DNA from: an uncultured bacterium
GTDB taxonomy: Bacteria > Patescibacteriota > Microgenomatia > Levybacterales > UBA12049
NCBI GenBank assembly: GCA_963826535.1
Contig: CAWGXL010000011.1
Span: 448,809-512,808, forward strand
Direction of reading: 5' to 3'
Length of the DNA stretch: 64,000 nt
In this document: positions 22,312 through 51,800 of the stretch, piece after piece
Layout of the letters: each line of letters opens with the position of its first letter
Position numbering within the stretch: position 1 is the first letter of the stretch
The notes under the pieces: generated by a model
Database searches by the model: none
What the model saw: only the letters and a program-made list of their open reading frames with translations
Told to the model about the DNA's origin: nothing
Translations under genes and position numbers: made by a program

Positions 22312-22384
22312 GGGCCGGTAGCTTAGCTGGTAGAGCGTCGCGTTTGCATCGCGAAGGTCGAGAGTTCGAATCTCTTCCGGTCCA
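22312..22384 (+). tRNA. tRNA-Ala(TGC)
   Basis: Hand-folded cloverleaf. Acceptor GGGCCGG/CCGGTCC with G3:U70. Anticodon loop TTTGCAT. TTCGAAT T-loop. No encoded CCA. Confidence 0.85.
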
Positions 22385-22386
22385 CT

Positions 22387-22418: not shown

Positions 22419-23191
22419 TGGATTTATGATTTTTTTGTCTGAAAGCAGAAAGCTAAGAGCTTAAAGCAAATTTTGCTTCGCAGTTTGAAGCAAGCCCCCT
22501 AGTTAGAGGGGGTTTTCTTCAAGCGTTGTGAGGCATGTCTTTTTACCCAAGGGTATGAGACAGGGTTTTTTGATTCTTGACTCCGATTTAAACGGAGTTG
22601 ACAGAACGAAAGGACTTAAAGCTTATCAATTGAGGTTCTTTGACAAGTGAAGAGAAGATCCCGCGTTTTGCTATCTGGCAAAATACGGGATTGTGGAAAT
22701 GTAAATATTTATTAATGCCAACAATGGATGCCTAGGAGATTCTGGCCGAGGAAGGACGCAGACGGCGGCGATACTCGTCGGGGAGGTGCCATCAACCTCT
22801 GATCCGGCGGTTTCCGAATGGAGCAATCCCTCCATCGCAAGATGGAGACCCTAGCGTAAAAATGGTTCGCAAGAATCATATAGCATTAGGGTGGGAACGG
22901 CGTGAACTGAAACATCTTAGTAACGCCAGGAAAAGACATCATATGAGATTCCCTTAGTAGCGGCGAGCGAAAGGGGAACAGCCTAAACTCCGATTTATCG
23001 GAGGGTTGCAGGGCAGACGATATTTGAGTGTTGCGAATAGCAGAAAGATCCGGAATGATCTTCCAAAGAAAGTGAAAGGCCTGTATGCGAAATTCAAAAC
23101 ACCGATAGTTTGTTCCTAAGTACCATGGAGCACGATTTAAACTCTGTGGGAATCCGGGTCGACCACGATCCAAGGCTAAATACCAGAATCT

Positions 23192-23230
<39 letters not shown>

Positions 23231-23544
23231 CACCCCGGAAGGGGGATGAAATAGAACTGAAATTGTTGGCTAACAAGCAGACAGAGGCCTTCGGCGAAAG
23301 CTCAGGCTAATGTCGTGCCTATTGAAGAATGAGCCGGTGAGTTTTTGATTGCTGCATGTTTAACCAATTTTACATTGGGAAGACGAAGTGAAAGCGAGCC
23401 CTAATTGGGCTACCAAAGTAGCAGTCATTAAACCCGAAACCGGGTGAGCTAACCTTGAGCAGGGTGAATCCCGACTAAAGTCGGGAGGAGGCCCGAACTC
23501 GTGAATGTAGCAATATTCTGAGATGACTTGAGGTTAGGGGCAAT

Positions 23545-23576
<32 letters not shown>

Positions 23577-23810
23577 CCCGAAATATATTAAGGTATAGCG
23601 CTTGGTAATTACAGCAGGGGGTAGAGCACTGAATGGTTCGCGGCGGCGCAAGCTGTCGTAACCAATCAAACTCCGAATACCTGTCTTGTGTATCCAAGTA
23701 GTCAGTCTTGTCGGGCTAAGCTGATGAGATTAAAGGGAAACAACCCAGACTCTCGATTAAGGCCTCGAAATAAAGGCTAAGTTTTAAAGGAAGTCAAATT
23801 CCAGAGACAT

Positions 23811-23841
<31 letters not shown>

Positions 23842-23924
23842 TAAAGATAGCGTAACAGCTCACTGGCGGATGGGATTTGGCGCCGAAAATGTAACGAGGA
23901 TTAAGCCTTTTGCCGAAATCGGAG

Positions 23925-24112
23925 ACTCTTGTCCGGAGGACAAGGAATATCAAAATACGAAGCACAGGATTAAATTCAAAATCCAAAATTACAAATTCCA
24001 AATAATATCAAAATTCAAATAATAAAATTCAAAACATTTAGAATTTTGATATTTGGATTTATTTAGGATTTGGTGCTTTGATATTTGAATTTCTCGTCCT
24101 TTGGATGAGTTT
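23925..24112 (+). other. intervening sequence (IVS) hairpin in the 23S helix-45 region, ORF-less
   Basis: An AT-rich inverted repeat of about 150 nt replaces the helix between GCCGAAATC.. and ..GGTAGGGGAGCG (E. coli helix 45 position). Sequence-related to intergenic elements at 5259-5359 and 37060-37168. Confidence 0.6.
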
Positions 24113-24860
24113 GGTAGGGGAGCGTCTTAAGTGCAGTGAAGTCGAATCGTAAGGTTTGGTGGAGCGGTTAGAAGTGAGAATGCCGGCATGAGTAGCGTAA
24201 TCCGCCTGAGAACGGCGGACACCGAAAGCACAAGGTTTCCTCCGCAATGTAAGTCAGCGGAGGGTAAGTCGGACCTAAGGGTATTCCTCGTTAAAGGGGA
24301 TTAGCCCGATGGACAAGTCGTTAATATTCGACTACAGGATGTGTGTATTATAAGGGGGTGTCGAAGGTGGAAGAATTGAGCGGGCCGCAAGGCTGCCGTC
24401 TAAGCAGTAAGATAGGGATAATTGGCAAATCTGTTATTCTGGTTAATTAAGCTGCGAATGAAAGCTGCGTGTAAAAACGGAGCGATTTGATCTCTTTCAG
24501 CTTCCAAGAAACGCCTCATTATCCAAATCGTAAGATTTGGAAAACACATGTTTTTCCGTACCGCAAACCGACACAGGTGTGCAGGTCGAGAAGACTAAGG
24601 TGATCGGAAGATGGATGATTCAGGAACTCGGCAAAAAAGCTAGGCGTAACCTATGGGAGATGCCTTGCCCCGCTATGCGGGGCTGCAACAAAAGTTTACT
24701 TAGCGACTGTTTATCTAAAACACAGGTCCCTGCAAAGCCGAAAGGCAACGTATAGGGGCTGACACCTGCCCAGTGCCGGTAAGTCAATGATGCTGAGTGA
24801 TGTCGCCGCAAGGCGACTGAGCTTGGTATCAAAGCTCCGGTGAACGGCAGCAGTAACTAT

Positions 24861-25575
24861 GAATACAGTTTGTAGTTGTAAAAGTCGACTAAATGCTGGA
24901 ATACCCGGTTGTATATGTTGATACTTTGGTCTATTATAAATAGAATATGCCAGGTAACAATTCAACATTGAGCGTCAATGAGACGCACCGGACAATCAGC
25001 AGGAAAGACTTGAGCCGAGAAGAACTAGGATTTTTCCTAGCAGGATTTGTTGAAGGAGAAGGGAGTTTTAATGTTTCATTACGACGAAAATCAGACTATC
25101 AAGTAGGATGGCAAGTCGTTATGAGCTTTAATGTTTCTCAAAAAGATCCGACTTTGCTTTTTCAATTAAAAGAGCAATTAGGATGCGGGATAATTAAAGT
25201 ACGAAAGATTGATAAACTCTATTCATTTGATGTAACAAATCCTAAGGATATAATCCAAAGAGTTATTCCATATTTTCAAAAATATCCAGTTCTTTCTGTT
25301 TCTAAACAAAGAAACTTTTTTTTATTTTGTGCAATAGCATATTTAATGGAGAAAGGTGAACATAGAAATTTGATAGGACTTCGGAAAATCCTTGAACTTC
25401 GGGAGATAATTAACGAAGGAAAAGGACGAAAACGAAAATATGAAATAGCAGATGTTTTTCTTGCTTAAGAATCCTCAGAGACTATACGTCGACCCCCGAT
25501 TAAATCGGGGATGATATAGTCCGACCTCATGGGCGACCATGAGACTCTGTAATCAATCAGAGCTTGTAACAATGT
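24861..25575 (+). mobile_element. group I intron at 23S GTAACTAT site (E. coli about 1917) encoding a homing endonuclease
   Basis: Exon sequence stops after gtaactat (24860) and conserved exon text resumes later. Contains the LAGLIDADG ORF. Confidence 0.7.
24947..25468 (+). CDS. LAGLIDADG homing endonuclease (single-motif type)
   Basis: LAGFVEGEGSF motif. 173 aa. Located within the 23S intron. Confidence 0.8.
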   Translation: MPGNNSTLSVNETHRTISRKDLSREELGFFLAGFVEGEGSFNVSLRRKSDYQVGWQVVMSFNVSQKDPTLLFQLKEQLGCGIIKVRKIDKLYSFDVTNPKDIIQRVIPYFQKYPVLSVSKQRNFFLFCAIAYLMEKGEHRNLIGLRKILELREIINEGKGRKRKYEIADVFLA

Positions 25576-25590
25576 GAACTGTTCTAAGGT
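25576..25590 (+). other. putative 15-nt 23S micro-exon AACTGTTCTAAGGTA between two introns
   Basis: Matches E. coli 23S AACGGTCCTAAGGTA (13/15). Flanked by intron-like sequence on both sides. Confidence 0.4.
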
Positions 25591-25842
25591 AACCAACTTC
25601 GTTGCCCTAGGAGTCAGTGTTTTAGTAATCCAACTATTTGCTGGAAAGACTCAGAATCCGACAATACCTGCAGAGGTAATAATTTGTTCGGTGGAGTTGA
25701 TCAGCAGGGAAGATCCCGATTAAATCGGGAAACCCTCAGAGACTATACGTTGGACCCCGATAAAATCGGGGAAGATATAGTCCGAACTCTATAGCGATAT
25801 AGAGAAATATAGATTACAAGGGTCTATAGATTAACATATTGA
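25591..25842 (+). mobile_element. second ORF-less group I intron (about position 1931), 3' region homologous to the first intron
   Basis: A 57-nt block CCTCAGAGACTATACGT..CCCGAT(T/A)AAATCGGGGA.GATATAGTCCGA.CTC occurs at 25472-25528 and 25733-25790. Exon resumes at GCGAAGTTCCTTGTCGGG. Confidence 0.45.
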
Positions 25843-26314
25843 GCGAAGTTCCTTGTCGGGCAAGTTCCGACCCGCACGAAAGGTAGAACGACTGAGTAAC
25901 TGTCTTAATCATCTATCCGGCGAAATTGAGATGGCTGTGAAGACGCGGCCTAGGTATACATGGACAAAAAGACCCCGGGAGCTTTACTGTAGCTTGGCAT
26001 TTGCAAGCTCGTTTTAATTGTTTAGAATAGGAGGGAGACTTCGGTCAACAGTGAAATACCTCTCTTTGAAATGAGCGAGCATCACTTCTAGCCGCATAAA
26101 AATACGGCAGAGGGACATTGTCTGGTGGGCAGTTTTACTGGGGAGGTAGACTCCTACAACGCAACGGAGTCGTGCAATGGTTGGCTAATCTTGAATGGAA
26201 ATCAAGATGATAGCATAAAGGCAAAAGCCAGCTTGACTGCGAGACCCACAAGTCGAGCAGGTACGAAAGTAGGCCTTAGTGATCCTCCGATGCTTGGTGG
26301 CAAGCACGGAGCTT

Positions 26315-26347
<33 letters not shown>

Positions 26348-26390
26348 GATCGCATCCAAGCGTCCACAGCGACGATGCGGTTTGGCACCT

Positions 26391-26728
26391 TAAGTAACAT
26401 TGGGGCGCCTATAGAGCAATCTGTAAGTCTGGTTATTCAATAACGCATTTAGAGAGTGCGGTGAATAAAAATACTAGTCAAAATCGGTGAATACCATTGA
26501 TATGAACAATTAATGGTTAATACCGAGGTTCTGTAAAGCAGAATGATCTTTATGATACTGCTGGCAGCACCGTATCGACTTTTATGTTCAGTTAATATGG
26601 GCATAAAGAGAAGGGGCTTTTGTTCCCGATTTAACGGGGCAAAAAATTATAGTCCTTCTAAAACACTAGCTCCTTTAGCAATAGAGGATGAAGGTATAGT
26701 CAACGCGTTTGGTAACAAACGAATAGAG
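26391..26728 (+). mobile_element. ORF-less intron at 23S position about 2449 (between GGCACCT and CGATGTCGGCTCATCACATCC)
   Basis: A 338-nt non-rRNA insertion between two perfectly conserved exon blocks. Confidence 0.55.
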
Positions 26729-26789
26729 CGATGTCGGCTCATCACATCCTGGGGGTGGAGAAGCTCCCAAGGGTCCGGCTGTTCGCCGG

Positions 26790-26820
<31 letters not shown>

Positions 26821-26967
26821 GCGTAAGCCAGTTCGGTCTCTATCCTGTATACACGTTTGAGATTTGAGGAGATTTGATCCTAGTACGAGAGGACTGGATT
26901 GAGGGAATCCCTGGTGTGCCAGTTGTTCCGATATTATCGGGCATCGCTGGGTAGCTAGATTCCCATC

Positions 26968-27000
<33 letters not shown>

Positions 27001-27174
27001 GTCTCCAAGATTAGATCTCGATCCCCGATTTATCGGGGGAAAGACCCTGGGAGACTACCAGGTTGATAGGCGGGCGGTGGAAGCTTCGTAAGGAGTTAAG
27101 CTTACCCGTACTAATGGTCGAGGAGTATTTTTTTTCCTATTCTCTTCACTTTTCAAGGAACTTGAATTAGCTTT

Positions 27175-27200: not shown

Positions 27201-27213
27201 AAAGAGAAATTTT

Positions 27214-27331
27214 CTGGTGATTTGAGCGATGTGGCACCACCTCTTCCCATTCCGAACAGAGAAGTGAAACGCATCAGCGCCTACGATACTAAGCACGATA
27301 GGTTGCATGGGAAAATGGGTCATCGCCAGGA
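27214..27331 (+). rRNA. rrf: 5S rRNA
   Basis: TCTGGTGA..CCCATTCCGAACAGAGAAGTGAAAC..CATCGCCAGGA conserved 5S blocks. Confidence 0.8.
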
Positions 27332-27412: not shown

Positions 27413-30400
27413 TTAGGCATTAGTTTTTGTTTCAAAATATCTATCAATAGTTTCCAGCATTGCTTCGTATCCTGATGGTTTGAGTATTTCAATAAAATTA
27501 TCATGGTTAAGAAATTTAATATTTACACCCGGGTCTAAAATTTTGTATTTTTGTTTGAATTTATCGTATGGTAAACGCTGTCCATTTTCATAAGCTGCTT
27601 CTTGAAAACTTCTAAATGCTTCTTCCATATTGCCTCCATTGGCCAGTATCCAATTTTCAACGCCTACGCCGCCGAATCCTCCATGCTCTTGCTTTTTATA
27701 GGCATGACCCTCTTTGAGTATTTGTTTTGCGAGAATAATATTAGCCACAGTTTGTTCATAAGCTTCTTGTCCACTATGTGTTTTTATAGAAGTTAGTTTG
27801 TCGCGAATGGCATCATGTGTACCGTAGGAACTTATATCAGATTTATTTGCAAAACCAATATCTATATCTAAAGGCTTATCCAGGCGTAAGCCACCAATTT
27901 CTGTTACACCTTGATTTCTAAGTTGATAGTAGCCGGCTTCTTGTGCGCTAGAATTATCTTTTTCGAAAACCATAGTTGCTTTTATGGCTTCGGCTAACTG
28001 TTGGGCACGCGGGAAATCTAAGGCATCCAGATTAAGGCTAAAATCAAAATCAAAATCTCCAGGCATATTCGTATGACGCCCAGTTGAGCCGGTATCTAAT
28101 AAGTCAGCTCCTAATATACTTGTGTCAAATTCTGTACGCAAGGATACGCCAAGTCCACTTAATGCTTTTTGGATTTGCTTTCTAACAATTTGTGTTGCAA
28201 GACTTACACGTTCACTATCTTCACCTAATCCGGCAACTATTTCTGAAATTTTTGAATAAGATACTTGATCCGGAGTTGTAGGGTGGATTTCTAATTTATT
28301 GCCTTCGTACTTATCTATTCCTGCAAAAACCTTACGAAAATCATCAAACATTTTCGGAGTAAAAAGAACTTTTCCCTTAGTGTCAGTTACTGGTATGTAA
28401 AAGCCGTTTTGCGCGATTTCAAAGAACACTTTTTCCATTTCCTTGGGCTGCGAAGCTAGCGAGTCTAAGGTTATCATGAAATCTATTTCACTGGTAGGAA
28501 AGCCCGTTCGTATTCCATAATGACGATCTCCACGTACACCGGTTTGGAAAAGTTCCAATTTTCCAGCTTCCCCCTTGATCTGACCTTCACGGTTAGTCAA
28601 TTGGTATTGTCCGCGATCTTTAAGCGCAAACAGCAATTGGCCATATCCTCCAGCAAGAGACATTTCTATTGCTCCGGAAAAACCGTTTTCTGTATCTTCT
28701 GGCTTGACCAGGCTGATGTCAGTATCGAATGGAGTAGAATCTGAGTTCGAACTTGCTCCTAAAAATTCTTTTGCCACAGAGCCGTTTTGAAGAATATTTG
28801 AAATATATCTCACGTCAACCCCCTTGAGAAAATCGCCGGATTTTAACTCAAGCGTAAATTCCTCATTCCCTTCGCTGGTTTTGTGCTGGGCTTCTTCAAT
28901 CATTGCCCTGTTTCTTTGATCGGCAGAAGATTTGGCCGTACGCATTTTTTCAAGCAATTGTTCAAGACTTGTTATGCCTGCCGGTTGTAGATACATCTCG
29001 GAAATTCTCTCAAGAACTGTTTGATTTTCGCCAACCTTTAAACTTTTACGCACACTGTTTATCCTTTCCTGTATATTGGAAAGCCCGGCGCTTTTAAAAG
29101 CGTCGTCCGCAGTTTCCAATGCTGATCTAGCATGTAAAGTTTCTAGTTTGCCCACAAAATAGCCGAGCTGTTCTTGTTGACGGGGATCTAGGCTTGATAA
29201 TCCTTCTTTCTCATACTGTTCCATCACTTGGCTGCCGCCTTGCAGTGTTTTTGCATATTCTTTTAAAGACCTGTTACCCGACTTGATGTGTACATCTAGT
29301 AAGTCCTGATAAATAGTACTATAACGCCTCCTGGTGCTCGACTGTTTTAATATAGGGCTTACCCTATCGGCATTGGTGTCAATTTGGGAACCTAATTTTT
29401 CCGGAGCATATAGCGTTTCAAAAACTCCAAAAATTTTACCAACAGTCGGAATATTATTTTTAATAAAAATTGATTCAATTTTTTGATAATTTTCGACCGG
29501 GTTATCAGACTCAACCAACTGAGCTATCAATGAGTCTTTAAGCCTCTGTATTTCCTGAGAGGGAGAATCGCCAATTTTTTGAAAAATTTCCAGGTATGTA
29601 GAAACTTTTTCCGGAGACATTGATGAGATTGGGATTATGGCGTCAAGGTTGCGCCACATAAAATCTTGAGATTTGGGAGAATCCTTAAATCTTTCAAAGA
29701 TGGGTAAAAGATTGTGTTCGGAAATACTTTTAAGAGCTATAAAATCTTCTATCGGATTCCGATGCATACCTATCATATCTAATTGCTGATGAATTTCAAA
29801 GATTCTTGGATTGTCACGAAGTTCTTCGAATTTAGAGGTATCTACAAGAACTAACTCATATTTAGTTACATATTTCCCAGTTAGTGGGTCATATTCGTCA
29901 CTGCTTTCGTATGTATATTTAGGCACGTATTCGAAATGGTTTATCATTTTTTCTATTGCGGGACGAAGCGTGGGATCGCTGTTGACCAGTGCGGCTGCTG
30001 TGTTGATATTATTGGGTTTTTCCCTAAGTCCGTTTTTCACAAAAGCAAGTGTTTCCGGATTATCAAACATCTCCCGAAACTTAGGGTCATCGCTAATTTT
30101 GACCAGATCAGCGGCATTATGCATTGAAAAATTTATCCCAAACTCATTCTTTACATGACCTAGTGTTTCAACTGTCTTAGGTTCGAAAAGTTTGCTGCAA
30201 AGTTCTTGGTTTCTAAGCGTGCTAAGTAAGTTACTTAATTGGTTATTGTCGTGGTCATCGTTTGGATTATAACTATAGCCATAAATTTCCTTTAATTTTT
30301 TAAGGGTCGATGCGGAATCGGGAATTTTCGTTAATTCGGCTAATGCTGGCCCATTCCAAATACCTGCATTAACTTCAAATATACCAAGCTGTTTTGCAAG

Positions 30401-32065
30401 TGCGACTCCGGTTTCCGATTCAACAGCTGACCGAAATGATTCATTGTGATAATTTGATATAAGTTGATTATTAGTTGGGTAATCATTAAAAAAATCATTG
30501 AATTTAAATTTATACCCTGCTTTTTCACAATCGCTTGCGAACTTTTTAAAATCCGGTTCTGCCACAACTTCAAAAAGCTCTTTATAGGCGGCCGCTTGTT
30601 CAGGTTTACCAAGATATTTATCCAGTTCCCAACCGTGAGCAATAACTCCCAAATCTGATATATTCGCGAGCGCAGGACCGGCTTCCTGAACTTTACCTGT
30701 TATTTGTTGAAATACTTGCATGTGTTCTGGGCTCAAAGTGTCTTCCGCTCCGAAAATCTTACCGGCGCCGCGCGCCAGCTCATAGAGGTCTGGATTGGTC
30801 TTAATAGATTCAGCAGCTGCGCGAATATTCTTAGCAGTCTGTTCTCTGTTTTCTTCGCCCCATCGAGAATATATGCCTAAGGATGTTTCAGTAAATCCGT
30901 CTTTAAGTAAAGCTGCTACTTCATTTTCAATTCCGGCATCTTTAAATGTATTCAGTTTATGAATCCAATCTCTTTCGTCAATATCTTTAGTTGTCTGTAT
31001 AAGTGCAGATAGAATCCCTAATGCGGTATTATCAGATGCGAGACGGGCCCAACTTTCTAGATAATCAGAGTTTACAGGCTTACCTAATAAAAGGGAAATT
31101 TTCCCAATTCCTATTTCAGCATCAGGAGTAAGAATATGTTCTGCTGCTTCGTTTGTCGCAAGTTTTGATAGTCTAGGTAGAGAATCATAATCTTTAATAA
31201 AGTCACGCGTGATATTTGTTCCTCCAAAGGATTTAAGTTTTTCTAATAGTGGTAAAATATCGGGATTCTGAGAAATCTCCTTTAATTTATCATGGTTAAC
31301 TAACCGCCAGCCTTTATAAATCTCCAATTTATAACCGTGATGCTGCAAGGCTTCAAATAACCTGACCGGGTCATTGGGCGATTTAACTATTTCATCAAGG
31401 TCTTTTGCAAGCCATTTGGACTCACTCGCGTTAAATGAATAAGGATTTTCTTTTGTCGCCCACACGTTCGTTTGTTCATCCCCTGGTTTATGTTCATAAA
31501 CTTCAACCTTATATCCCTGATCTCTTAACTTTTGAGCCACCTTTTCTATTTTTTTAATCTTTGCTTTATCTATTTTTAAATGTTGAGAATCTGTTTCTAC
31601 AGCATTTTCTTCAAGATAGTGAGCAAGTGCTAAAACTTGCTCAGGATTTTCTATTCCCTGCATTTTTAAACGTATCAGGCGGGCTTTTTCTTTCACAGCT
31701 TCAAATCCTGTGCGTTGGTGCTCGGCCATATATTGGTCAAGTGATTGTGGCCGCGGGGTTTCTTGCCGTGTTGATTCAACTCTGTTTATTGCAGGCGTCA
31801 ATTCTTGAGACCTATTTGGGTTTTCGGGGTTTGAAGTTACCGAAGCTCCATTTACTTTTTGGCTTTCTAAATCTATTGGTTCATCAAGTATTAGCATAAG
31901 GCCTTCACGGCCACGTTCAGAAACACTCCTGTCAAGAGTACCAAGTGTATTCATTAGTCCTGTTTTTTCTTGCTCACTTGGTTCCATATGCCTTGCTGGT
32001 GGTTTAGGCGTAGGCTTGTCTGGAGATTTTATATTTTGGTTGTCTTCCGATGTACTTTCTGCCAT
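27413..32065 (-). CDS. giant (1550 aa) soluble helical protein with C-terminal Pol-beta-superfamily nucleotidyltransferase-like domain
   Basis: No signal peptide or TM. C-terminal GSTGRHTNMPGDFDFDF (G-S-x9-D-x-D) followed about 45 aa later by LDIDIGF (third acidic beta-strand). Motif encoded at about 28048-28110. Confidence 0.6.
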   Translation of the reverse strand: MAESTSEDNQNIKSPDKPTPKPPARHMEPSEQEKTGLMNTLGTLDRSVSERGREGLMLILDEPIDLESQKVNGASVTSNPENPNRSQELTPAINRVESTRQETPRPQSLDQYMAEHQRTGFEAVKEKARLIRLKMQGIENPEQVLALAHYLEENAVETDSQHLKIDKAKIKKIEKVAQKLRDQGYKVEVYEHKPGDEQTNVWATKENPYSFNASESKWLAKDLDEIVKSPNDPVRLFEALQHHGYKLEIYKGWRLVNHDKLKEISQNPDILPLLEKLKSFGGTNITRDFIKDYDSLPRLSKLATNEAAEHILTPDAEIGIGKISLLLGKPVNSDYLESWARLASDNTALGILSALIQTTKDIDERDWIHKLNTFKDAGIENEVAALLKDGFTETSLGIYSRWGEENREQTAKNIRAAAESIKTNPDLYELARGAGKIFGAEDTLSPEHMQVFQQITGKVQEAGPALANISDLGVIAHGWELDKYLGKPEQAAAYKELFEVVAEPDFKKFASDCEKAGYKFKFNDFFNDYPTNNQLISNYHNESFRSAVESETGVALAKQLGIFEVNAGIWNGPALAELTKIPDSASTLKKLKEIYGYSYNPNDDHDNNQLSNLLSTLRNQELCSKLFEPKTVETLGHVKNEFGINFSMHNAADLVKISDDPKFREMFDNPETLAFVKNGLREKPNNINTAAALVNSDPTLRPAIEKMINHFEYVPKYTYESSDEYDPLTGKYVTKYELVLVDTSKFEELRDNPRIFEIHQQLDMIGMHRNPIEDFIALKSISEHNLLPIFERFKDSPKSQDFMWRNLDAIIPISSMSPEKVSTYLEIFQKIGDSPSQEIQRLKDSLIAQLVESDNPVENYQKIESIFIKNNIPTVGKIFGVFETLYAPEKLGSQIDTNADRVSPILKQSSTRRRYSTIYQDLLDVHIKSGNRSLKEYAKTLQGGSQVMEQYEKEGLSSLDPRQQEQLGYFVGKLETLHARSALETADDAFKSAGLSNIQERINSVRKSLKVGENQTVLERISEMYLQPAGITSLEQLLEKMRTAKSSADQRNRAMIEEAQHKTSEGNEEFTLELKSGDFLKGVDVRYISNILQNGSVAKEFLGASSNSDSTPFDTDISLVKPEDTENGFSGAIEMSLAGGYGQLLFALKDRGQYQLTNREGQIKGEAGKLELFQTGVRGDRHYGIRTGFPTSEIDFMITLDSLASQPKEMEKVFFEIAQNGFYIPVTDTKGKVLFTPKMFDDFRKVFAGIDKYEGNKLEIHPTTPDQVSYSKISEIVAGLGEDSERVSLATQIVRKQIQKALSGLGVSLRTEFDTSILGADLLDTGSTGRHTNMPGDFDFDFSLNLDALDFPRAQQLAEAIKATMVFEKDNSSAQEAGYYQLRNQGVTEIGGLRLDKPLDIDIGFANKSDISSYGTHDAIRDKLTSIKTHSGQEAYEQTVANIILAKQILKEGHAYKKQEHGGFGGVGVENWILANGGNMEEAFRSFQEAAYENGQRLPYDKFKQKYKILDPGVNIKFLNHDNFIEILKPSGYEAMLETIDRYFETKTNA

Positions 32066-32371
32066 ATTATTCTTGTATCAGACATACGCTTCTATCTCAT
32101 TATGGGTCATAAAAAGGGAATATTCAAGTTCAGAAGGTGGTTTTATAGTTTGGAGCAAAAGGTCATAGCGCTGTTGTACAAGAGTTTAGGATTTGATAAA
32201 GAATAAATTATTTAAAATTAATCAGCATAAAAGCCTTTTATTTTAATAACTTTAGCTGAGTTGATTTGTCTATTGACATAGCCTAATTTCATATGTAGAA
32301 TCTCGTGAGTAAGTTTTTCATTATTTTTTTAGTTATCATTTTAATTTAAAGTAAGCTATTTTTATAATTTT

Positions 32372-33394
32372 ATGTCAGCCGAAGCATTACAAATAAGACC
32401 GGATATATCAAAACAATTACTAAGAAGGCGGGAAGGCGAGGTTATTCAAGGTGAATATAAAGGCCCATCAATTGCTGTTATGAATGGGGGGCTATTATGG
32501 TTTCCACTTTTTGTAAATGCACCAGATAAGGAAGCCGGTGTAAGTAAGAGTGTGGAGATGCCTAGAACGGTTGATGAATGGAAAATAGACCACACCATTA
32601 ACTTGCGTTATGATTTTACGAGGGAAAAGTTTAGGCTTATGTTGGGGATAATCGGAGGTAGTGCTCAGAATATGGACCACAATGTTATTGCTGAAGCTAT
32701 AGGAAAGGATGCGCCTCTATCAGCATTGTATTATGCAATGGGAAATGAAGAAGAAAGACGGGGTAATAAAGACAATGAAATTACGAGGACAACAGCACTT
32801 TTTATTGTCCAGAAAAAGCAGATCCTCAAACCGCATAGCGATGGTAGGGTGGATATTAGGGTAAAAATTATAGATAAAGGTACCACAAGTTTAACTTTGG
32901 AACATGAAGGTACTCAAAATGGTGAAGCAGTTAGTAATGGTGGAAGTGTTATTTCTTTTCAAAGATTTCCTTATGTAGCAAAACCAAAGAAAGACCGACA
33001 AGCCGAGGATTATAGCAAATATGTAGCATGTGGTGGACCAGTCACGGCTAGTAAAGAAGAGGTTGAAGCTTTTGCAAATGATATTTCGGGAGATGTCAAT
33101 CAGGCACACAGAGATGAAATATATGCAGCAAAAACAGTCTTTGGTGAGCCTATTGTTCATGGCTTAATCACTCTTGGCAAAGTTCTTGTTTTATTAGCAG
33201 ATGATGCTAGAAAAATGGGAGAAAAAGGAACGCTTAAGGGTTATGAAGTTAATTTTAGAAATGCGGCGTTCTTTGATGAGACAATAGTTACAAAAAAGGT
33301 AAAGAGGCCGGTAAATGGCAGCTATGCATACGATTTCGTTTCGACTAAAGTAAGTGGTGAGCCAATTATGGTAGGAACTGCTACTTTTGCTTAG
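32372..33394 (+). CDS. protein with unknown N-terminal region and C-terminal MaoC-like hot-dog domain
   Basis: C-terminal FGEPIVHGLITLGKV...YEVNFRNAAFFDETI resembles MaoC dehydratase hot-dog fold motifs. Confidence 0.45.
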   Translation: MSAEALQIRPDISKQLLRRREGEVIQGEYKGPSIAVMNGGLLWFPLFVNAPDKEAGVSKSVEMPRTVDEWKIDHTINLRYDFTREKFRLMLGIIGGSAQNMDHNVIAEAIGKDAPLSALYYAMGNEEERRGNKDNEITRTTALFIVQKKQILKPHSDGRVDIRVKIIDKGTTSLTLEHEGTQNGEAVSNGGSVISFQRFPYVAKPKKDRQAEDYSKYVACGGPVTASKEEVEAFANDISGDVNQAHRDEIYAAKTVFGEPIVHGLITLGKVLVLLADDARKMGEKGTLKGYEVNFRNAAFFDETIVTKKVKRPVNGSYAYDFVSTKVSGEPIMVGTATFA

Positions 33395-33437: not shown

Positions 33438-34368
33438 CCGTAAATATCCGACACTTTAGTTTAGCTGGTAAGCGGCGGTTTCATTCCTAAACTAATATGC
33501 GGTCTATGATAATGATATCTTTGAAGAAATGCTTCAATAAGGCTTTTTGCTTCTAAAAGTTCTGATTTTCTATACTTGTTCCACCCCAGGCATTCTTTTC
33601 TTACTGTTTTGTTAAAGCTTTCAATGAAAGATTGTTCATTTTTCTTGTAAGGTCTTGAAATACGAAATCTATCTGTGTAAGTATAGACTTTTTCTGCAAA
33701 TTTGTCTTTAAACTCCGGCCCGCCATCTGCCTGTATTAAATCGCTATGCCCATTGAAGCGTCTTCTCATACAGGTATCCAGGAAAATAACACCATCATTA
33801 CTGGTTAGGGATGGGCGAAGGACAACATCTGCTTCTCTGGAAAAGATATCAACTGCTGTAAAGGCAAAGAGTTCTCCAAAGTCAATTGTATCCATTTGAA
33901 TTACTTCCCGAGGTTTTACCGCTTTTGGTACCGGCCCACGTTTTATGTTATTGCCTCGTCTCTTCCGAAGAACGTACTTCTCTTTTAATATCTCATAAAT
34001 CTTAGGAATTGAGATAGAAACGGCGTGTTCTTTTTTGAGAAAGTATTGTATTTTATCTCCGCAACAATCCATCTCACGCTCTCTAATCTGCCAGACCCAC
34101 CTTTTTAGAATTGCATTCACTTGCCGTTTAGGACGGTCTCCTTTCTTAGCCACAAGATAGTAGTCTAGGAATCCCATAAGCCCTTGTGGATTATTGAGAA
34201 TACCACAGATCCATAAATGAACAGTTTCCCGATGAATGCCAAGCTGCTTGGCAATATGAGTCTTTGGCATCCCTTGTTCAAACAATTCCCAGGCGAGAGA
34301 AACTTTCGTTATTTGTTGCATATTCATAGTATATCTTTTCTCTGCCGCTTACTGTCGGATTTCTACGG
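33438..34368 (-). mobile_element. IS481-like insertion sequence (single-ORF HTH + DDE/rve transposase) with imperfect terminal inverted repeats
   Basis: Left end ccgtaaatatccgacac...ggtaagcgg versus right end reverse complement ccgtagaaatccgacagtaagcgg. Boundaries approximate. Confidence 0.5.
33461..34327 (-). CDS. DDE transposase/integrase (rve core) with N-terminal HTH
   Basis: HIAKQLGIHRETVHLWI helix-turn-helix. Core QMDTIDF...ADGGPEF...ESFNKTVRKE (D, D, E spacing typical of the retroviral-integrase superfamily). Confidence 0.7.
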   Translation of the reverse strand: MNMQQITKVSLAWELFEQGMPKTHIAKQLGIHRETVHLWICGILNNPQGLMGFLDYYLVAKKGDRPKRQVNAILKRWVWQIREREMDCCGDKIQYFLKKEHAVSISIPKIYEILKEKYVLRKRRGNNIKRGPVPKAVKPREVIQMDTIDFGELFAFTAVDIFSREADVVLRPSLTSNDGVIFLDTCMRRRFNGHSDLIQADGGPEFKDKFAEKVYTYTDRFRISRPYKKNEQSFIESFNKTVRKECLGWNKYRKSELLEAKSLIEAFLQRYHYHRPHISLGMKPPLTS

Positions 34369-44296: not shown

Positions 44297-44367
44297 GGGC
44301 CTATGGTATAACGGTAGCACACTGCATTCGCATTGCAGAGATCCGAGTTCGATTCTCGGTAGGTCCA
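44297..44367 (+). tRNA. tRNA-Ala(CGC)
   Basis: Hand-folded. Acceptor GGGCCTA/TAGGTCC (G3:U70). Anticodon stem CTGCA/TGCAG with loop TTCGCAT. T-loop TTCGATT. No CCA. Confidence 0.75.
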
Positions 44368-44473
44368 CAAAGTAAGTTAAAAGTTTAAAGTGCAAAGTTC
44401 AAAATTATAGATTAAAAGTTTAAAAAATTAAATTTAACTTTGTATTTTGAACTTTGAATTTTTAAGTTAGCTT
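44368..44473. repeat. AT-rich palindromic spacer (caaagttcaaaat...attttgaactttg) between two tRNA-Ala genes
   Basis: Inverted repeat of AGTTCAAA units. Same unit family as the spacers at 48340-48417 and 53322-53422. Confidence 0.5.
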
Positions 44474-44544
44474 GGGCCCGTGGTATACCGGTAACATGCT
44501 TCCATGGCATGGAAGAGTAAGGGGTTCGATTCCCCTCGGGTCCA
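44474..44544 (+). tRNA. tRNA-Ala(GGC)
   Basis: Hand-folded. Acceptor GGGCCCG/CGGGTCC (G3:U70). Anticodon stem CTTCC/GGAAG with loop ATGGCAT. T-loop TTCGATT. No CCA. Confidence 0.75.
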
Positions 44545-44857
44545 CTCATTAACTATTAGCATATTTGTTATTGTTTGTTATGCTTAGGTGGTGTTTGGAT
44601 AGGGTGTAGTTTGGTGTTTACTCTTCTTTTAAATCGTGGTATAATACTTCTAGTTTTATTCCGGGTATTCTAAGGTAACGCATTACGGGTATTCCGCGGG
44701 TGGGCGGATAAATTTTTAACCTCAAGGTCACTTAGGATTATAAACGGAAACCCGCCTAATCTTGCCGTTCGCCTTAGTAGATTTCTACTGCGGCTCACGG
44801 AGCGATTTATCGGCGGGCAGGCCCGCTAAAGGCGGGCAAGAAGGTAGGTGGACTTAA

Positions 44858-48800: not shown

Positions 48801-51800
48801 CTATGGTGATCCAGTCAGCGGGCCAAACCTCACGGCGGAGTCTTCGTTGTAGAGGGTGCGAATTTGGGTCGCATTGAGGGCGTAGTTGTAGATGCGGATG
48901 TCGTCGATGAGGCCATCAAAAAACTGCTGGTCAACTTCGGTTGAACCAAGACGAAGCTCAGTTGTATCCGTGGTTAAAACTGATCCCGTAGAAACGGTCT
49001 TGACTAAATTTCCATTTAAGTAGAGATAGATAGAGTCTGCTGCATCGTCATAAACTCCCACTAAATGTTCCCACACATTTGTACCAGAAAGAGGATACCC
49101 CTGATCATATTGCGAATTAGCGATCCCCATTGCAAATTCGTTTTCATTATTAATTAGTAGAAAATACAACTGCCCTTTGCGAACAATCTCCCGGAATTGG
49201 CTATCTAGCACATCCCGTTTCACCCAAGCTGAAATAGTCAATTGTGAAGTAATTTGTAATGAGGAAGAATTCGGCATTGATACATAGTCATTCGTCCCGT
49301 CAAATCCTAGGCTACTGTTGAATTTTCCAGAAGTACCATCATGCCACATCTCTGTACTTGTGCCTGAGTTGCAGGTGCCTGCAGTGTCGTTGTCACCGCT
49401 TGTGTCGCCAGGAGTGATGGTGCCGTTGTTGCCTTTGCCTGAGCTATCATAGGCTGTGGTGCCTGTACATTCGTCGAGTTTCCAGTGGCCGATTGGTTTG
49501 CCGCGGTTGTAGATCCAGGCGACTTGGGATTGGGTGGGCGCGTAGTTATACATGCGAACATCGTCTATAGTAGTATCTGGTTCTATTTCCTCGATTAAGA
49601 AAGATTGGCCGGAATTAGCAAACCCGCTTCCGGCATTATATGAGCCCGATCCGGCCAGTAGGCCATCCTTATATACTTGACAGGTGCCATTATCCAAAAT
49701 AAAAACGACATGATGCCATGCATTATTAAGTATGTTTGTAGCATAATCAGTGCACGGATCTTGGTTAGTTCCGGCTGATGTATCAACCCGTATGTATAAG
49801 TCTTTGTTCTGGCTGCCCGCATTGTTGTGTATAGCCCATCCGGTGGTAGCGAAATCCGATTTGTACATAAGTCCATCGAAGTCACCGTTTGCCGTGCCTT
49901 TAACCCAAAATGAAACTGCCATCGTTGTATTTAGATTGATACTTGGGCTGTTGCTAACAGTAATTCCCGCATCACTTTTAAGAAGGAGTCCCTGCCCAAT
50001 TTTGCCGGAAGTCCATGATGCCCCGATTCCCAGGGTGCCGGTGTTGGCGTTGCCGGTGATATCGTTGGCGGTGGTGCCGGTGCGCTCGTCGAGAGTCCAG
50101 TGGCCGACGGGGGCGGGGTTGAGGCCGGCGGCGCAGTTGGTTTCGGTGTTGCCGGGGGGGCAATAGGCGCGGGCGGCGGAGTTGGAGGCTGTGATGCCAT
50201 CGGGATTGGTGGAGAGGGTGCCAAAGACGACGGCTTTGCCTTGGTTGTATTCTACTTTGACTTCGTCGGGGTTGAGGCCGTAGTTGTAGATTTTGACTTC
50301 GTCAATTGAACCTGTCCATGGCAGCCCGCTGCTGTAGGGAAATCCTATAAAGAAATTATTGCTCATGCCTTGAGTAGCACCGCTTGGGGTTGAACCAACT
50401 AAACTGCCATTTTTATATGCGAATAGATTGCCGTTGCTGTGGACCCAAGCAATATGGGTCCACTCGTCTGCTGAATATGTAATTCCGATTCTATCTTGGT
50501 TGCCGTCCCAGTTATACACCCAAATCCTGTCTAAGCCGCCGATAACTCCCCGATATATTCCTGCAAAGCCACCATCATCTCCTATTGCACCTTTTCCTTC
50601 AAAAGCTCCAGAGATAGTAGGAGATGAACCGGTTGGCTTGATCCATATTGAAATCGCAGCTTCAGACGCTGTCATAAGGGATGACATAGTGTTATTGGTT
50701 GCGACGTAGTCATTAGTCCCGTCAAATAGTAGTGCTTTACCGAGTTTGCCTTCATTGGTCCACCCTGAGGTGACTGTAGCAGGGGAGGCCATGCTGGTGA
50801 GGGTGCCATTGCCGGTGGAGCCAAGTGAGCCGGAGTTTTTGGTGGTAGTACCGTAGCCGTCGTCGAATTTGTAGTGGGCAAGAGCTGATCCGACAGGAGA
50901 GCCGACGGCGGGGTGGCCGGCGTTCATGTCTTGGATGATTTGTTTGGGGGTGCGGGCGTAGTTGTAGATGCGCACGTCGTCGATGAGACCGGGAAAGAAC
51001 TCATCGGAACCACGATCGCCTATGCGAACCGGTATATTATTGGTCGTTGATGTCCATGTGCCGCTCGTCGTCGACTTAAATACACCGTCTATGTAGATCG
51101 AGATAGAAGTGGGTGTGTTAACAGCATTCACCAGATGCCATTTGCCGTCATCTATACACTGCTGGGCGGCATTGAGAGAATCAATATCCGACGTTCCCCG
51201 TATTGTCATCCGCGGCATACACTGCCACACTCCCAAATCCCATCCATCGACCCCAGATAAATACTTGCCAATAATAGGCCGAAAACCGGCATTTGAGGTT
51301 TTTACCCAAACAGAAAGAGTGAAGTCTGAAGTGAAATCAAAATTTGATTCATTAGCCACGCTCACATAATCATTCACCCCGTCAAACTGTAATCCCTGTC
51401 CGAGTTTGCCGGCTGCCCAGGAGGGGCCGCCGGTGAGAGTGCCGTTGTTGGCGTTGCTACTGATATCGTTGGCGGTTATTCCTGTGCGTTCGTCGAGAGT
51501 CCAGTGGCCGACGGGGCCGGGGGCCCAGTCAGCGAGGGCGGCGACTTCGGAGGGGGAGAGGGCGCGATTGTAGAGGCGGACGTCGTCGAGAATACCATCG
51601 AGATAACGTGATGGGGCTCCAAGACAATGACCGAATTCGACACTTGATCCGGTTGGCCTTTCAAATGTGTTTGAGTTGGTTGCTTCTAATACTCCGTTGA
51701 CGTACATTCTTGCCGCAGAGCCGTCATATGTGCTTGTAATGTGATACCAGGTATTGGTGGAAACAGTGCTTACGGAGTTAACCCCATTCGCGTTACCTCC

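Follow-up and report, generated by a model that had tools for sequence, protein, structure and literature searches.

A chromosomal protein family of Patescibacteria with a conserved module predicted to combine a helical domain, an ADP-ribosyltransferase-like domain and a Pol-beta nucleotidyltransferase

The window analyzed here, a stretch of 64,000 nucleotides from an uncultured bacterium of the Patescibacteriota, contains a giant open reading frame on the reverse strand (27413..32065) that starts with ATG and encodes 1550 amino acids plus a stop codon. The gene adjoins the 23S–5S rRNA genes; the 5S rRNA gene (27213–27331, forward strand) is convergent with it and lies 81 bp from its stop codon (80 bp in the preliminary description). 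The other neighbors are, as had been described, a MaoC hot-dog gene (32372–33394) and an IS481-like rve transposase gene (33461–34327). The protein is acidic in all parts (pI of 5.2, 4.7, and 5.3 in the N-terminal region, ADP-ribosyltransferase [ART]-like domain, and nucleotidyltransferase [NTase], respectively) and, consistent with the earlier account, soluble and free of a secretion signal: the highest Kyte-Doolittle 19-residue mean is 0.96, no hydrophobic or transmembrane segment is present, and the N-terminus is not signal-like. A check for internal repeats, which that account had proposed for the N-terminal 1200 residues, found none. Searches with Pfam, NCBIfam, PADLOC, PHROGs, and PDB sequences did not recognize the protein.

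Relatives are nevertheless numerous. An exhaustive HMMER search recovered ∼1100 cluster representatives (1101 with E ≤ 1e-3, of which 697 pass E ≤ 1e-30). Almost without exception they are proteins of 1200–3000 amino acids that share the same C-terminal module of ∼730–740 amino acids preceded by a variable N-terminus; in some genomes the module stands alone (∼790 amino acids). Hosts include many lineages of Patescibacteria (CPR), with source labels that include Zambryski-, Taylor-, Uhr-, Vogel-, Levy-, Magasanik-, and Davies- as well as Saccharibacteria and Peribacteria, plus low-GC gut "Bacilli" MAGs. The order of helical, ART-like, and NTase domains is constant across the family, and 139 members are 35–69% identical to the query over the module. 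No neighboring gene is conserved in 81 family loci, close homologs sit in different gene contexts without the rRNA adjacency, and no copies were found in the phage, plasmid, and viral (IMG/VR) collections searched. These patterns contradict the accessory context that the flanking genes had suggested, and the effector or signaling enzyme of an episymbiont that had been proposed with it is speculative. The open reading frame is a real chromosomal gene of a large, unnamed, and unannotated Patescibacteria/CPR family, and its product is putatively cytoplasmic.

Conservation is concentrated toward the C-terminus. Residues 1–120 (31706..32065; all parts of the gene are given on the reverse strand) are hydrophilic, rich in Pro, Glu, Ser, and Lys, and, judged by sequence and alignment A1, poorly conserved even among the closest homologs. 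Residues 121–810 (29636..31705) form a variable region that is kept in the closest relatives (55–61% identity, a figure for the whole protein); of 196 family members, just 30 have detectable sequence similarity to it, and no Pfam domain was found in it or in longer relatives. The remainder, residues 811–1550, is modeled with high confidence by AF2 (model m059eab0587c9; pLDDT 92.9, pTM 0.92), and the model predicts a helical domain, a divergent ART-like domain, and a two-lobed Pol-beta NTase. The preliminary description had envisaged a scaffold tethering a single NTase, but the ART-fold domain directly upstream is equally conserved and is itself preceded by the conserved helical domain. That domain (residues 811–1062; 28880..29635) is all-helical in the model (helices 8–252). 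When residue conservation was scored in the 139 members and, independently, in 71 members derived from genomes, N870, P873, K877, and D921 were invariant in both; the first three lie in the loop NNIPTVGK (N870–K877; 29435..29458) between two helices. The protein had been called largely alpha-helical, which holds for this domain, whereas residues 1066–1262 and 1300–1410 are alpha/beta in the models of the module.

The NTase (residues 1270–1550; 27416..28258) had been proposed from sequence motifs, and the predicted structure and conservation now support it. In its AF2 model, a catalytic alpha/beta lobe and a helical lobe lie between a long helix at the N-terminus and, at the C-terminus, a small beta element and a closing helix. 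The best Foldseek matches in the PDB are 1r89 and 1f5a (E = 1.5e-5, probability 1.00), followed by Cid1, GLD-2, CutA, CdnC, OAS, and cGAS. When TM-scores are normalized by target, CD-NTases score higher (0.50–0.55) than CCA-adding enzymes and poly(A) polymerases (PAPs; 0.38–0.40). The model places the fold in the archaeal-CCA/poly(A) polymerase/TUTase/OAS-cGAS-CD-NTase structural type. Among the kin suggested earlier, CD-NTases (CdnC, CdnD, and CdnE) do match; minimal, ANT-type, and GlnE-like NTases are not among the best 50 matches. All three motifs quoted previously are present, with first residues 1326 (GSTGRHTNMPGDFDFDF), 1399 (LDIDIGF), and 1461 (HGGFGGVGVENWIL). The segment GSTGRHTNMPGDFDFD (28043..28090) contains the G-S loop (G1326, S1327, R1330, and T1332) and, on strand beta2, the first pair of catalytic carboxylates, D1339 and D1341. 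The motif LDIDIGF (27851..27871) supplies the third catalytic carboxylate, D1402, on a beta strand 61 residues after D1341; the earlier spacing of ∼45 took the last residue of the first motif as its starting point. D1402 is invariant, and D1400 is conserved at 0.91–0.95. In the helical lobe, K1447 and Y1456 are nine residues apart (27698..27727), and HGGFGGVGVENW (27650..27685) is an invariant glycine-rich loop with E1470. G1326–S1327, D1339, D1341, D1402, K1447, and Y1456 are invariant in the 139 members and the independent 71. Because the glycine, serine, and three aspartates are invariant and fall on the expected strands of the model, the motif is judged to be no chance match. The domain is very probably a real and active NTase. 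K1447 and Y1456 are candidate triphosphate ligands, presumably parallel to residues of class I CCA/PAP enzymes.

Residues 1066–1262 (28280..28870) probably have an ART fold. For this region (AF2 model mf9ab4bc1ae1f, pLDDT 90.9), the best 50 Foldseek matches in the PDB are all ART folds, with Tpt1/KptA and DarT at the top and pertussis/LT-type toxins, ExoA/cholix, and tankyrase/PARP among the others; E-values are weak (8e-3 at best) and TM-scores low. In BFVD the lowest E-value is 1.9e-4, and every match that has a name is PARP-like or Tpt1/KptA. Sequence profiles gave no match to the domain, nor did Pfam in 61 members. The preliminary description had overlooked this region. Across the 139 and 71 sequences, K1081, D1109, D1116, E1171, and R1186 are invariant, giving the signature K...D-x-T-P-x-D-x-D...E...H-x3-R. 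K1081 (28823..28825) is on strand beta1 (model strand 14–18), where it is predicted to occupy the position of a His or Arg in known ARTs; a local hhalign alignment sets LKGV (K1081) against YHGT of Escherichia coli KptA but is not significant (probability 0.4%). The invariant D/T/P/D/D cluster DSTPFDTD (D1109–D1116; 28718..28741) leads into strand beta2. E1171 (28553..28555), on strand beta5 (LELFQ), is the candidate catalytic glutamate from strand order. In the strand HYGIR (28508..28522), H1182 and R1186 show little or no variation. Neither the canonical H-Y-E and R-S-E triads nor the R-H-R-R residues of Tpt1 are present.

We suggest that the best overall explanation, with a probability of about 45%, is a three-domain enzyme module of Patescibacteria for which an RNA end is the favored candidate substrate. 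The NTase would bind NTP-Mg2+ through S1327, D1339, D1341, D1402, K1447, and Y1456 and transfer an NMP onto an acceptor hydroxyl. The ART-like domain would bind NAD+ or another nucleotide and act on the substrate of the NTase, and the variable N-terminal region would bring in a substrate or partner. With an RNA terminus as substrate, the role could be to heal and extend or to tag and extend: the ART-like domain may handle a terminal phosphate in the manner of Tpt1/KptA, and the NTase may extend the RNA 3' end. RNA ends are preferred because enzymes working on nucleic-acid ends are the nearest solved neighbors of both domains, but on this analogy the substrate itself is a tentative assignment, with the odds somewhat against it. 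An enzyme that grips RNA would not normally be so acidic in every domain, and protein or nucleotide acceptors are therefore still candidates. A nucleotide acceptor is also conceivable because CD-NTases fit as well as CCA enzymes and PAPs by target-normalized TM-score.

Protein acceptors would make the module a dual protein-modifying enzyme with two reactions: AMPylation or NMPylation of a protein at the NTase and ADP-ribosylation of one at the ART-like domain. The variable N-terminal region would pick the target, which could be a basic protein of the same cell (ribosomal or nucleoid) or one from a partner cell. We consider this unlikely, though less so than the other alternatives. The overall acidity would suit basic targets, the N-terminus varies fast relative to the conserved catalytic module, and both ARTs and Pol-beta NTases are established protein-modifying domains that co-occur in polyvalent proteins (PMC5512222). 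However, the closest solved structures of both domains have nucleic acids or nucleotides as substrates, and protein NTases of the GlnE, DrrA, and MNT types are not among the best 50 matches. Nor does the protein have a secretion signal, a conserved partner or immunity gene in the 81 loci, or a delivery system linked to its gene. Nucleotide acceptors point instead to a signal synthase for stress or defense, with the NTase making a cyclic or linear oligonucleotide like CD-NTases and OAS and the ART-like domain supplying or consuming an NAD+-derived moiety. Structural matching to CdnC, CdnD, CdnE, OAS, and cGAS is significant and gives the best target-normalized TM-scores, and small-molecule acceptors would be compatible with an acidic surface. 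But CCA and PAP rank first by E-value, PADLOC and Pfam SMODS matches were not found, and the 81 loci have no effector, sensor, or other conserved neighbor. No copies were found in the phage, plasmid, and viral collections searched. Defense genes usually turn over fast; in our judgment, the strong and even conservation of the module across Patescibacteria lineages is unlike them. This reading is improbable.

Two further possibilities are far less probable. The preliminary description suggested an NTase of the ANT or minimal kind acting on an antibiotic or metabolite, and the G-S...D-x-D...D motif is indeed common to the whole superfamily. Yet ANT, LinA, KNTase, and MNT structures are missing from the best 50 matches, Pfam NTP_transf_2 was not matched, and a 1550-residue protein with a conserved three-domain architecture is unlike resistance enzymes. 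Equally doubtful is the idea that both folds have lost catalysis and serve as binding modules in a structural or assembly factor. Some class-I-like NTases are indeed inactive and function in RNA or ribosome binding (Utp22; PMC3794860). NF90–NF45 and MiD51 are also among the structural matches of the NTase, and a role in ribosome biogenesis might account for the position beside the 23S–5S genes. That adjacency is not conserved among homologs, however, and whereas pseudoenzymes usually lose catalytic residues, all of them are strictly invariant here in >200 diverse sequences.

The CCA-adding enzyme of Archaeoglobus fulgidus (1r89), joint-top match of residues ∼1270–1550 over ∼300 aligned columns, has catalytic carboxylates E59, D61, and D110 and, like the NTase, a G-S loop, two carboxylates two residues apart on the next strand (E59 and D61; D1339 and D1341), and a third later (PMC3925840). 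The second lobe is helical in both and bears basic and aromatic residues. Identity is just 13–16%, however, no Pfam or PDB sequence match was found for the NTase, and the body and tail tRNA-binding domains are missing from the giant protein, whose NTase is acidic and fused behind helical and ART-like domains. According to a preprint, canonical class II CCA-adding enzymes are carried by the 16 Patescibacteria genomes that it sampled (10.64898/2026.05.29.728689). PAP (1f5a and 2o1p), Cid1, GLD-2, CutA, and TUT4 share the two-lobed catalytic-plus-central-domain fold and catalytic triad arrangement; unlike eukaryotic-type PAPs and TUTases, the giant protein is bacterial and lacks an RNA-binding domain and PAP_central or PAP_assoc Pfam matches. 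CD-NTases, OAS, and cGAS (CdnC 6u7b, CdnD 6p82, CdnE 6wt9, and OAS3) also share the two-lobed fold, but with E-values weaker than those of CCA and PAP, and the giant gene has no adjacent CBASS-type effector or regulator.

For the ART-like domain, the closest structures are Tpt1/KptA (7yw4, 9ldg, and 8tg3), an RNA 2'-phosphotransferase, and the ssDNA ADP-ribosyltransferase DarT (8baq and 7omv), at E of 8e-3 to 0.1. Both represent the ART fold in minimal form and have nucleic-acid termini or bases as their targets. The domain differs in lacking the N-terminal RNA lobe of Tpt1 and any detectable sequence similarity, and has K, D-x-T-P-x-D-x-D, E, and H...R in place of a canonical triad. Its pairing with a Pol-beta NTase is unmatched in the family libraries and literature searched. 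The polyvalent proteins of phages and conjugative elements are likewise giant and multidomain, and ART and Pol-beta NTase domains can occur together in them (Iyer et al. 2017; PMC5512222). The NTases there are of the minimal kind (NTox45- or MNT-like), the proteins belong to mobile elements, and their domain order varies (PMC5512222), whereas the Patescibacteria family, which had no copies in the phage, plasmid, and viral collections searched, is chromosomal and keeps a fixed three-domain module.

The ORF at 27413..32065 (-) of the window starts with ATG and encodes a 1550-aa protein (the giant protein), in which all three motifs quoted in the preliminary description are present: GSTGRHTNMPGDFDFDF starting at residue 1326, LDIDIGF at residue 1399, and HGGFGGVGVENWIL at residue 1461. 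The protein is net acidic overall with a hydrophilic N-terminus, and it has no signal peptide, no hydrophobic segment (top 19-residue Kyte-Doolittle mean of 0.96), and no internal repeats found by self-BLAST. The preliminary description was also correct in its account of the surroundings. On one side are 23S and 5S rRNA genes (22701-27134 and 27213-27331, both +), the latter ending 81 bp short of the giant ORF's stop codon, and on the other are a MaoC hot-dog gene (32372-33394) and an rve-type transposase (33461-34327, -) with IS481 as its top NCBIfam match, under the model cut-off. The match covers the full length of the IS481 model at 91 bits versus a cut-off of 224, with IS3 a close second, and the transposase is a divergent IS481/IS3-like element. 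A promoter and terminator scan yielded no signal exceeding shuffled background. In two homologue loci, 55-aa ORFs precede the giant gene by 4 nt (L001, 9829-9996; L004, 1040-1207 and 1212-1379), and the translation of the one in L001 is abundant in charged residues; the region upstream of the window gene (32066-32371) has no counterpart.

The 23S rRNA gene spans 4434 nt versus 2925 nt for its model and holds a group I intron (Rfam, 72 bits), a LAGLIDADG homing-endonuclease ORF, and a further 105-aa ORF, in segments 24947-25468, 25581-25804, and 26543-26860. Only a tRNA-Ala(TGC) gene (22312-22385) precedes the 23S-5S pair and there is no 16S rRNA gene within the 64 kb, so the pair appears to be unlinked from the 16S gene. 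Two more tRNA-Ala genes, with CGC and GGC anticodons, are located ∼100 bp apart (44297-44368 and 44474-44545), and the window therefore has three tRNA-Ala isoacceptors. Two further giant ORFs (48801-53321 and 53830-63606, both -) lie in a stretch with a GC content of 0.49-0.52 versus about 0.39 elsewhere; one encodes 1506 aa with six Laminin_G_3 (concanavalin-like) domains and the other, with a TTG start, encodes 3258 aa with no Pfam match.

Searches with the whole giant protein against Pfam, NCBIfam, PADLOC, PHROGs, and, with phmmer, PDB sequences returned only sub-threshold noise, and a family-alignment profile searched against PDB sequences returned coiled-coil noise alone, in its N-terminal columns. 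An exact-sequence look-up found no record of the protein, and in the literature we found no description of either the family or a module joining an ADP-ribosyltransferase (ART) to a class-I-like nucleotidyltransferase (NTase). Nevertheless, the family is large. A word-indexed search identified four homologues with 55-61% identity, of which two carry the labels Candidatus Zambryskibacteria and Taylorbacteria, and alignment showed that conservation is concentrated in the final ∼740 residues. When a profile of this conserved part was run exhaustively against 1.84 billion cluster representatives, 1101 proteins were found at E<=1e-3 (697 at E<=1e-30), nearly all of which are 1200-3000 aa in length with a complete ∼730-residue module at the C-terminus. 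A second search found 432 proteins, for which every source-supplied name is "hypothetical protein" and almost none has a Pfam domain; among the labels in this set are Uhr-, Vogel-, Levy-, and Magasanikbacteria and "Parcubacteria/Patescibacteria group". Three peptide patterns were also used to scan GTDB species genomes, and the 277 stretches confirmed in this way add Davies-, Komeili-, and Jacksonbacteria, Saccharibacteria, and Peribacteria. For approximately 30 of these stretches the source is a gut MAG with the label Bacilli, Tenericutes, or Clostridia (labels as supplied), and these loci have 26-29% GC and UvrA, pyruvate-phosphate dikinase, and LysM-amidase as neighbours. The family thus probably extends beyond Patescibacteria. 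The gut-MAG members (L049, L051/L076, L053, L057, L058, L068, and ∼25 other loci) come from rabbit, Hadza, mouse, goat, and deer and are sometimes tandem pairs. Several other family loci are labelled "Gammaproteobacteria", again as supplied.

The conserved part has a fixed architecture. An AlphaFold2 model of residues 811-1550, built on a 74-sequence alignment, has a mean pLDDT of 92.9 and a pTM of 0.92, and comprises an all-helical domain (811-1062), an alpha/beta domain (about 1072-1250), and, after a linker and long helix, a catalytic alpha/beta lobe with a helical lobe and small beta element (1270-1550). Throughout 81 family loci these three domains are complete and in unchanged order. The module sometimes stands alone (∼790 aa, as in L010), is sometimes tandem-duplicated (as in L049), and is split in four loci (L020, L044, L055, and L080). 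Each split yields two adjacent ORFs, with the break between the helical/ART and NTase parts or inside the helical domain, and could be a frameshift, an assembly error, or a real split. Nearly all members end with the module; one 2844-aa member (L069, 52-8586) continues for ∼390 residues beyond the NTase. The helical domain has invariant residues of its own (N870, P873, K877, and D921). Across residues 1-810, detectable sequence similarity extends to just 30 of 196 members of the family, and there is no Pfam domain; in four much longer relatives N-terminal matches are of low complexity only, with no Pfam domains.

The last domain of the module identifies the giant protein as a member of the Pol-beta NTase superfamily, as all three defining features tested are present. 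The first is an hG[GS] loop with [DE]h[DE]h about 10-13 residues beyond it, in the next beta strand; in the giant protein, 11 residues separate G1326-S1327 from D1339-F-D1341-F, which lies on model strand 529-536 (residues 1339-1346). The second is that a later strand of this sheet carries the third catalytic carboxylate, here D1402 of LDIDIGF (model strand 583-597). The third is a catalytic alpha/beta fold that matches solved members (Foldseek probability 1.00). Top Foldseek matches in the PDB are exclusively Pol-beta-type NTases, including all 14 at E<=1e-3. The best is the Archaeoglobus fulgidus class I CCA-adding enzyme (1r89, E 1.5e-5, probability 1.00), alongside mammalian and yeast poly(A) polymerase (PAP; 1f5a and 2o1p), followed by Cid1, GLD-2, CutA, and TUT4 and then by CdnC/CdnD/CdnE, OAS, cGAS, NF45/NF90, and MiD51. 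Approximately 300 columns align per match, over a two-lobed catalytic-plus-helical fold that is common to the whole matched group. Ordering by E-value puts CCA-adding enzymes and PAP ahead, whereas the target-normalised TM-score puts the smaller CD-NTases ahead (0.50-0.55 versus 0.38-0.40), and these scores therefore do not fix the subgroup within two-lobed NTases.

Conservation was scored in 139 family members (35-69% identical to the giant protein) and in 71 independent, genome-derived members. G1326, S1327, R1330, D1339, D1341, D1402, K1447, Y1456, and E1470 are 100% conserved. In class I CCA enzymes and PAP, the triphosphate is bound by a Lys and a Tyr with a nine-residue spacing, a pattern that K1447 and Y1456 fit as candidate triphosphate ligands. 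The first two catalytic carboxylates of AfCCA, E59 and D61, are two residues apart (PMC3925840), the same spacing as D1339 and D1341. The NTase fold and catalytic triad proposed from the motif are thus confirmed, by Foldseek on the model and by residues invariant in 139 plus 71 sequences; neither a fold other than that of NTases nor variable acidic residues, which the preliminary description had itself named as grounds for withdrawing the proposal, was observed.

That description, right about the NTase, missed a second catalytic-looking domain. Modelled alone, residues 1066-1262 have a pLDDT of 90.9, and their best 50 PDB matches are all ADP-ribosyltransferase-fold proteins, with weak E-values. 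The top match is the Tpt1/KptA RNA 2'-phosphotransferase (7yw4, E 8e-3, probability 0.99; also 9ldg and 8tg3), and others are DarT (8baq, 7omv), pertussis, LT, and PltA toxins, exotoxin A, cholix, Scabin, and tankyrase/PARP4. Among viral models the best E-value is 1.9e-4 and informatively named matches are PARP-like or Tpt1/KptA; one is a segment of a nidovirus polyprotein that is reported to embed a KptA domain (PMC9503650). The ART-like domain is conserved as strongly as the NTase, with K1081 (first core strand), E1100, D1109-x-T-P-x-D1114-x-D1116 (entering the second strand), E1171 (fifth strand), and H1182 and R1186 (sixth strand) all invariant. Judged by strand order rather than superposition, K1081 would stand where known ARTs have His or Arg, and E1171 where they have the catalytic glutamate. 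The ART triad, H-Y-[EDQ] or R-S-E on beta1/beta2/beta5, is absent, E1171 being the only canonical residue. Pfam found no ART family in 61 ART-domain sequences, and an alignment profile of the domain found no relevant match among PDB sequences. With hhalign, the profile aligned to E. coli KptA at a non-significant probability of 0.4%, the sole local alignment pairing LKGV with YHGT. At best, the domain may be a new ART clade with a putative co-substrate.

Close homologues occupy unrelated neighbourhoods, clustering of 702 ORFs from the 81 loci revealed no neighbour family in more than five, and there is no match in phage and plasmid collections (tblastn) or IMG/VR (scan). The argument that the gene sits in an accessory island is therefore unsupported, and its adjacency to rRNA genes and an IS element in the window is uninformative as to function.

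The family thus has a fixed helical-ART-NTase module, cytoplasmic features, stand-alone chromosomal inheritance across many lineages, and two enzyme-like domains with invariant putative catalytic residues. In a far-reaching reading, to which we give a probability of roughly 0.3, it forms a class of bifunctional enzymes not recognised before, with a housekeeping role characteristic of Patescibacteria and shared by certain other bacteria with reduced genomes. A single rigid module would couple two transfer reactions, one ART-like and dependent on NAD+, the other of the class-I-like NTase kind and dependent on NTPs, to carry out an undescribed hybrid or sequential modification, e.g. an ADP-ribose- or phosphate-linked step and then nucleotide addition, on RNA ends or basic protein. 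As to the mechanism itself, we infer that the NTase is active and uses NTP-Mg2+ to place an NMP on a hydroxyl acceptor, that the ART-like domain binds NAD+ or a related nucleotide, and that both act on one substrate recruited by the variable N-terminal region. RNA termini are the favoured candidate substrate because, for each of the two domains, the closest proteins of solved structure act at the ends of nucleic acids: terminal phosphates are removed or ADP-ribosylated by Tpt1/KptA, and 3' ends are extended by CCA/PAP/TUTases. A heal-then-extend scheme would be chemically coherent.

Counting against RNA ends, every domain is acidic (pI 4.7-5.3) and the giant protein has no recognisable RNA-binding domain. 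A preprint describing canonical class II CCA enzymes in sampled Patescibacteria genomes (10.64898/2026.05.29.728689) also counts against them and, together with the missing tRNA-binding domains, weakens the case for the giant protein as the CCA-adding enzyme of the lineage. Modification of proteins by NMPylation combined with ADP-ribosylation is conceivable but doubtful. Synthesis of a CD-NTase- or OAS-like signal is unlikely; such enzymes are among the structural matches, and the gene lacks a recurring neighbour. A small-molecule NTase is very improbable. Equally so is an inactive scaffold like Utp22, NF45, or MiD51: two of these are structural matches, but invariant catalytic residues contradict a loss of activity.

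Genomes of Patescibacteria are ∼1 Mb in size, yet many lineages retain this gene, which is 4-9 kb long and has a product that goes unrecognised by every annotation resource. The conserved core can now be described, with confidence, as a module of three domains in which two active sites are probable, one from each of the two main nucleotide-transfer superfamilies, Pol-beta NTases and ARTs. What was a "hypothetical giant protein" thereby becomes an enzyme that can be tested, with residues and co-substrates (NTPs and NAD+) specified. If both domains share one substrate, the module would be a new coupling of ADP-ribosyl and nucleotidyl chemistry, and if that substrate is RNA, it would bear on RNA maintenance in reduced-genome organisms. 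About 1100 sequence clusters unrecognised by the family libraries searched would gain a family definition, and the family, for which a function is proposed here, is a large one and a characteristic feature of a major uncultivated radiation.

Comparisons with known systems set the family apart. Class I (archaeal) CCA-adding enzymes have a four-domain head-neck-body-tail organization, whereas the giant protein ends ∼150 residues past the catalytic lobe, with a helical lobe and small beta element only. As the tRNA-binding body and tail are absent, and as there is no Pfam or NCBIfam model match and no similarity to PDB sequences, it does not belong to that family. CBASS CD-NTase/SMODS proteins, for which an adjacent effector and often Cap genes are expected, were rejected given no Pfam or PADLOC match and no conserved neighbour in 81 loci. 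The comparison to minimal NTases and ANT-type enzymes (NTP_transf_2), which are small with one lobe or built like KNTase, in the preliminary description likewise did not hold, with no Pfam match and no such structure among the top 50, and the R-x4-6-H motif of a HEPN partner is not among the conserved residues of the family. Tpt1/KptA is excluded by the lack of a PTS_2-RNA match in 61 members and of the Tpt1 R-H-R-R residues; it has an N-terminal winged-helix RNA lobe, whereas a 250-aa helical domain precedes the ART-like domain here. Relative to polymorphic toxins and secreted effectors the pattern is inverted, with a variable N-terminus and conserved C-terminus, no signal peptide, and no conserved neighbour that could serve as the adjacent immunity gene of such systems, and the giant protein does not fit the polyvalent proteins. 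Set against these named families by profile, structure, and context tests, the family and its architecture are classified as new, and its folds as known.
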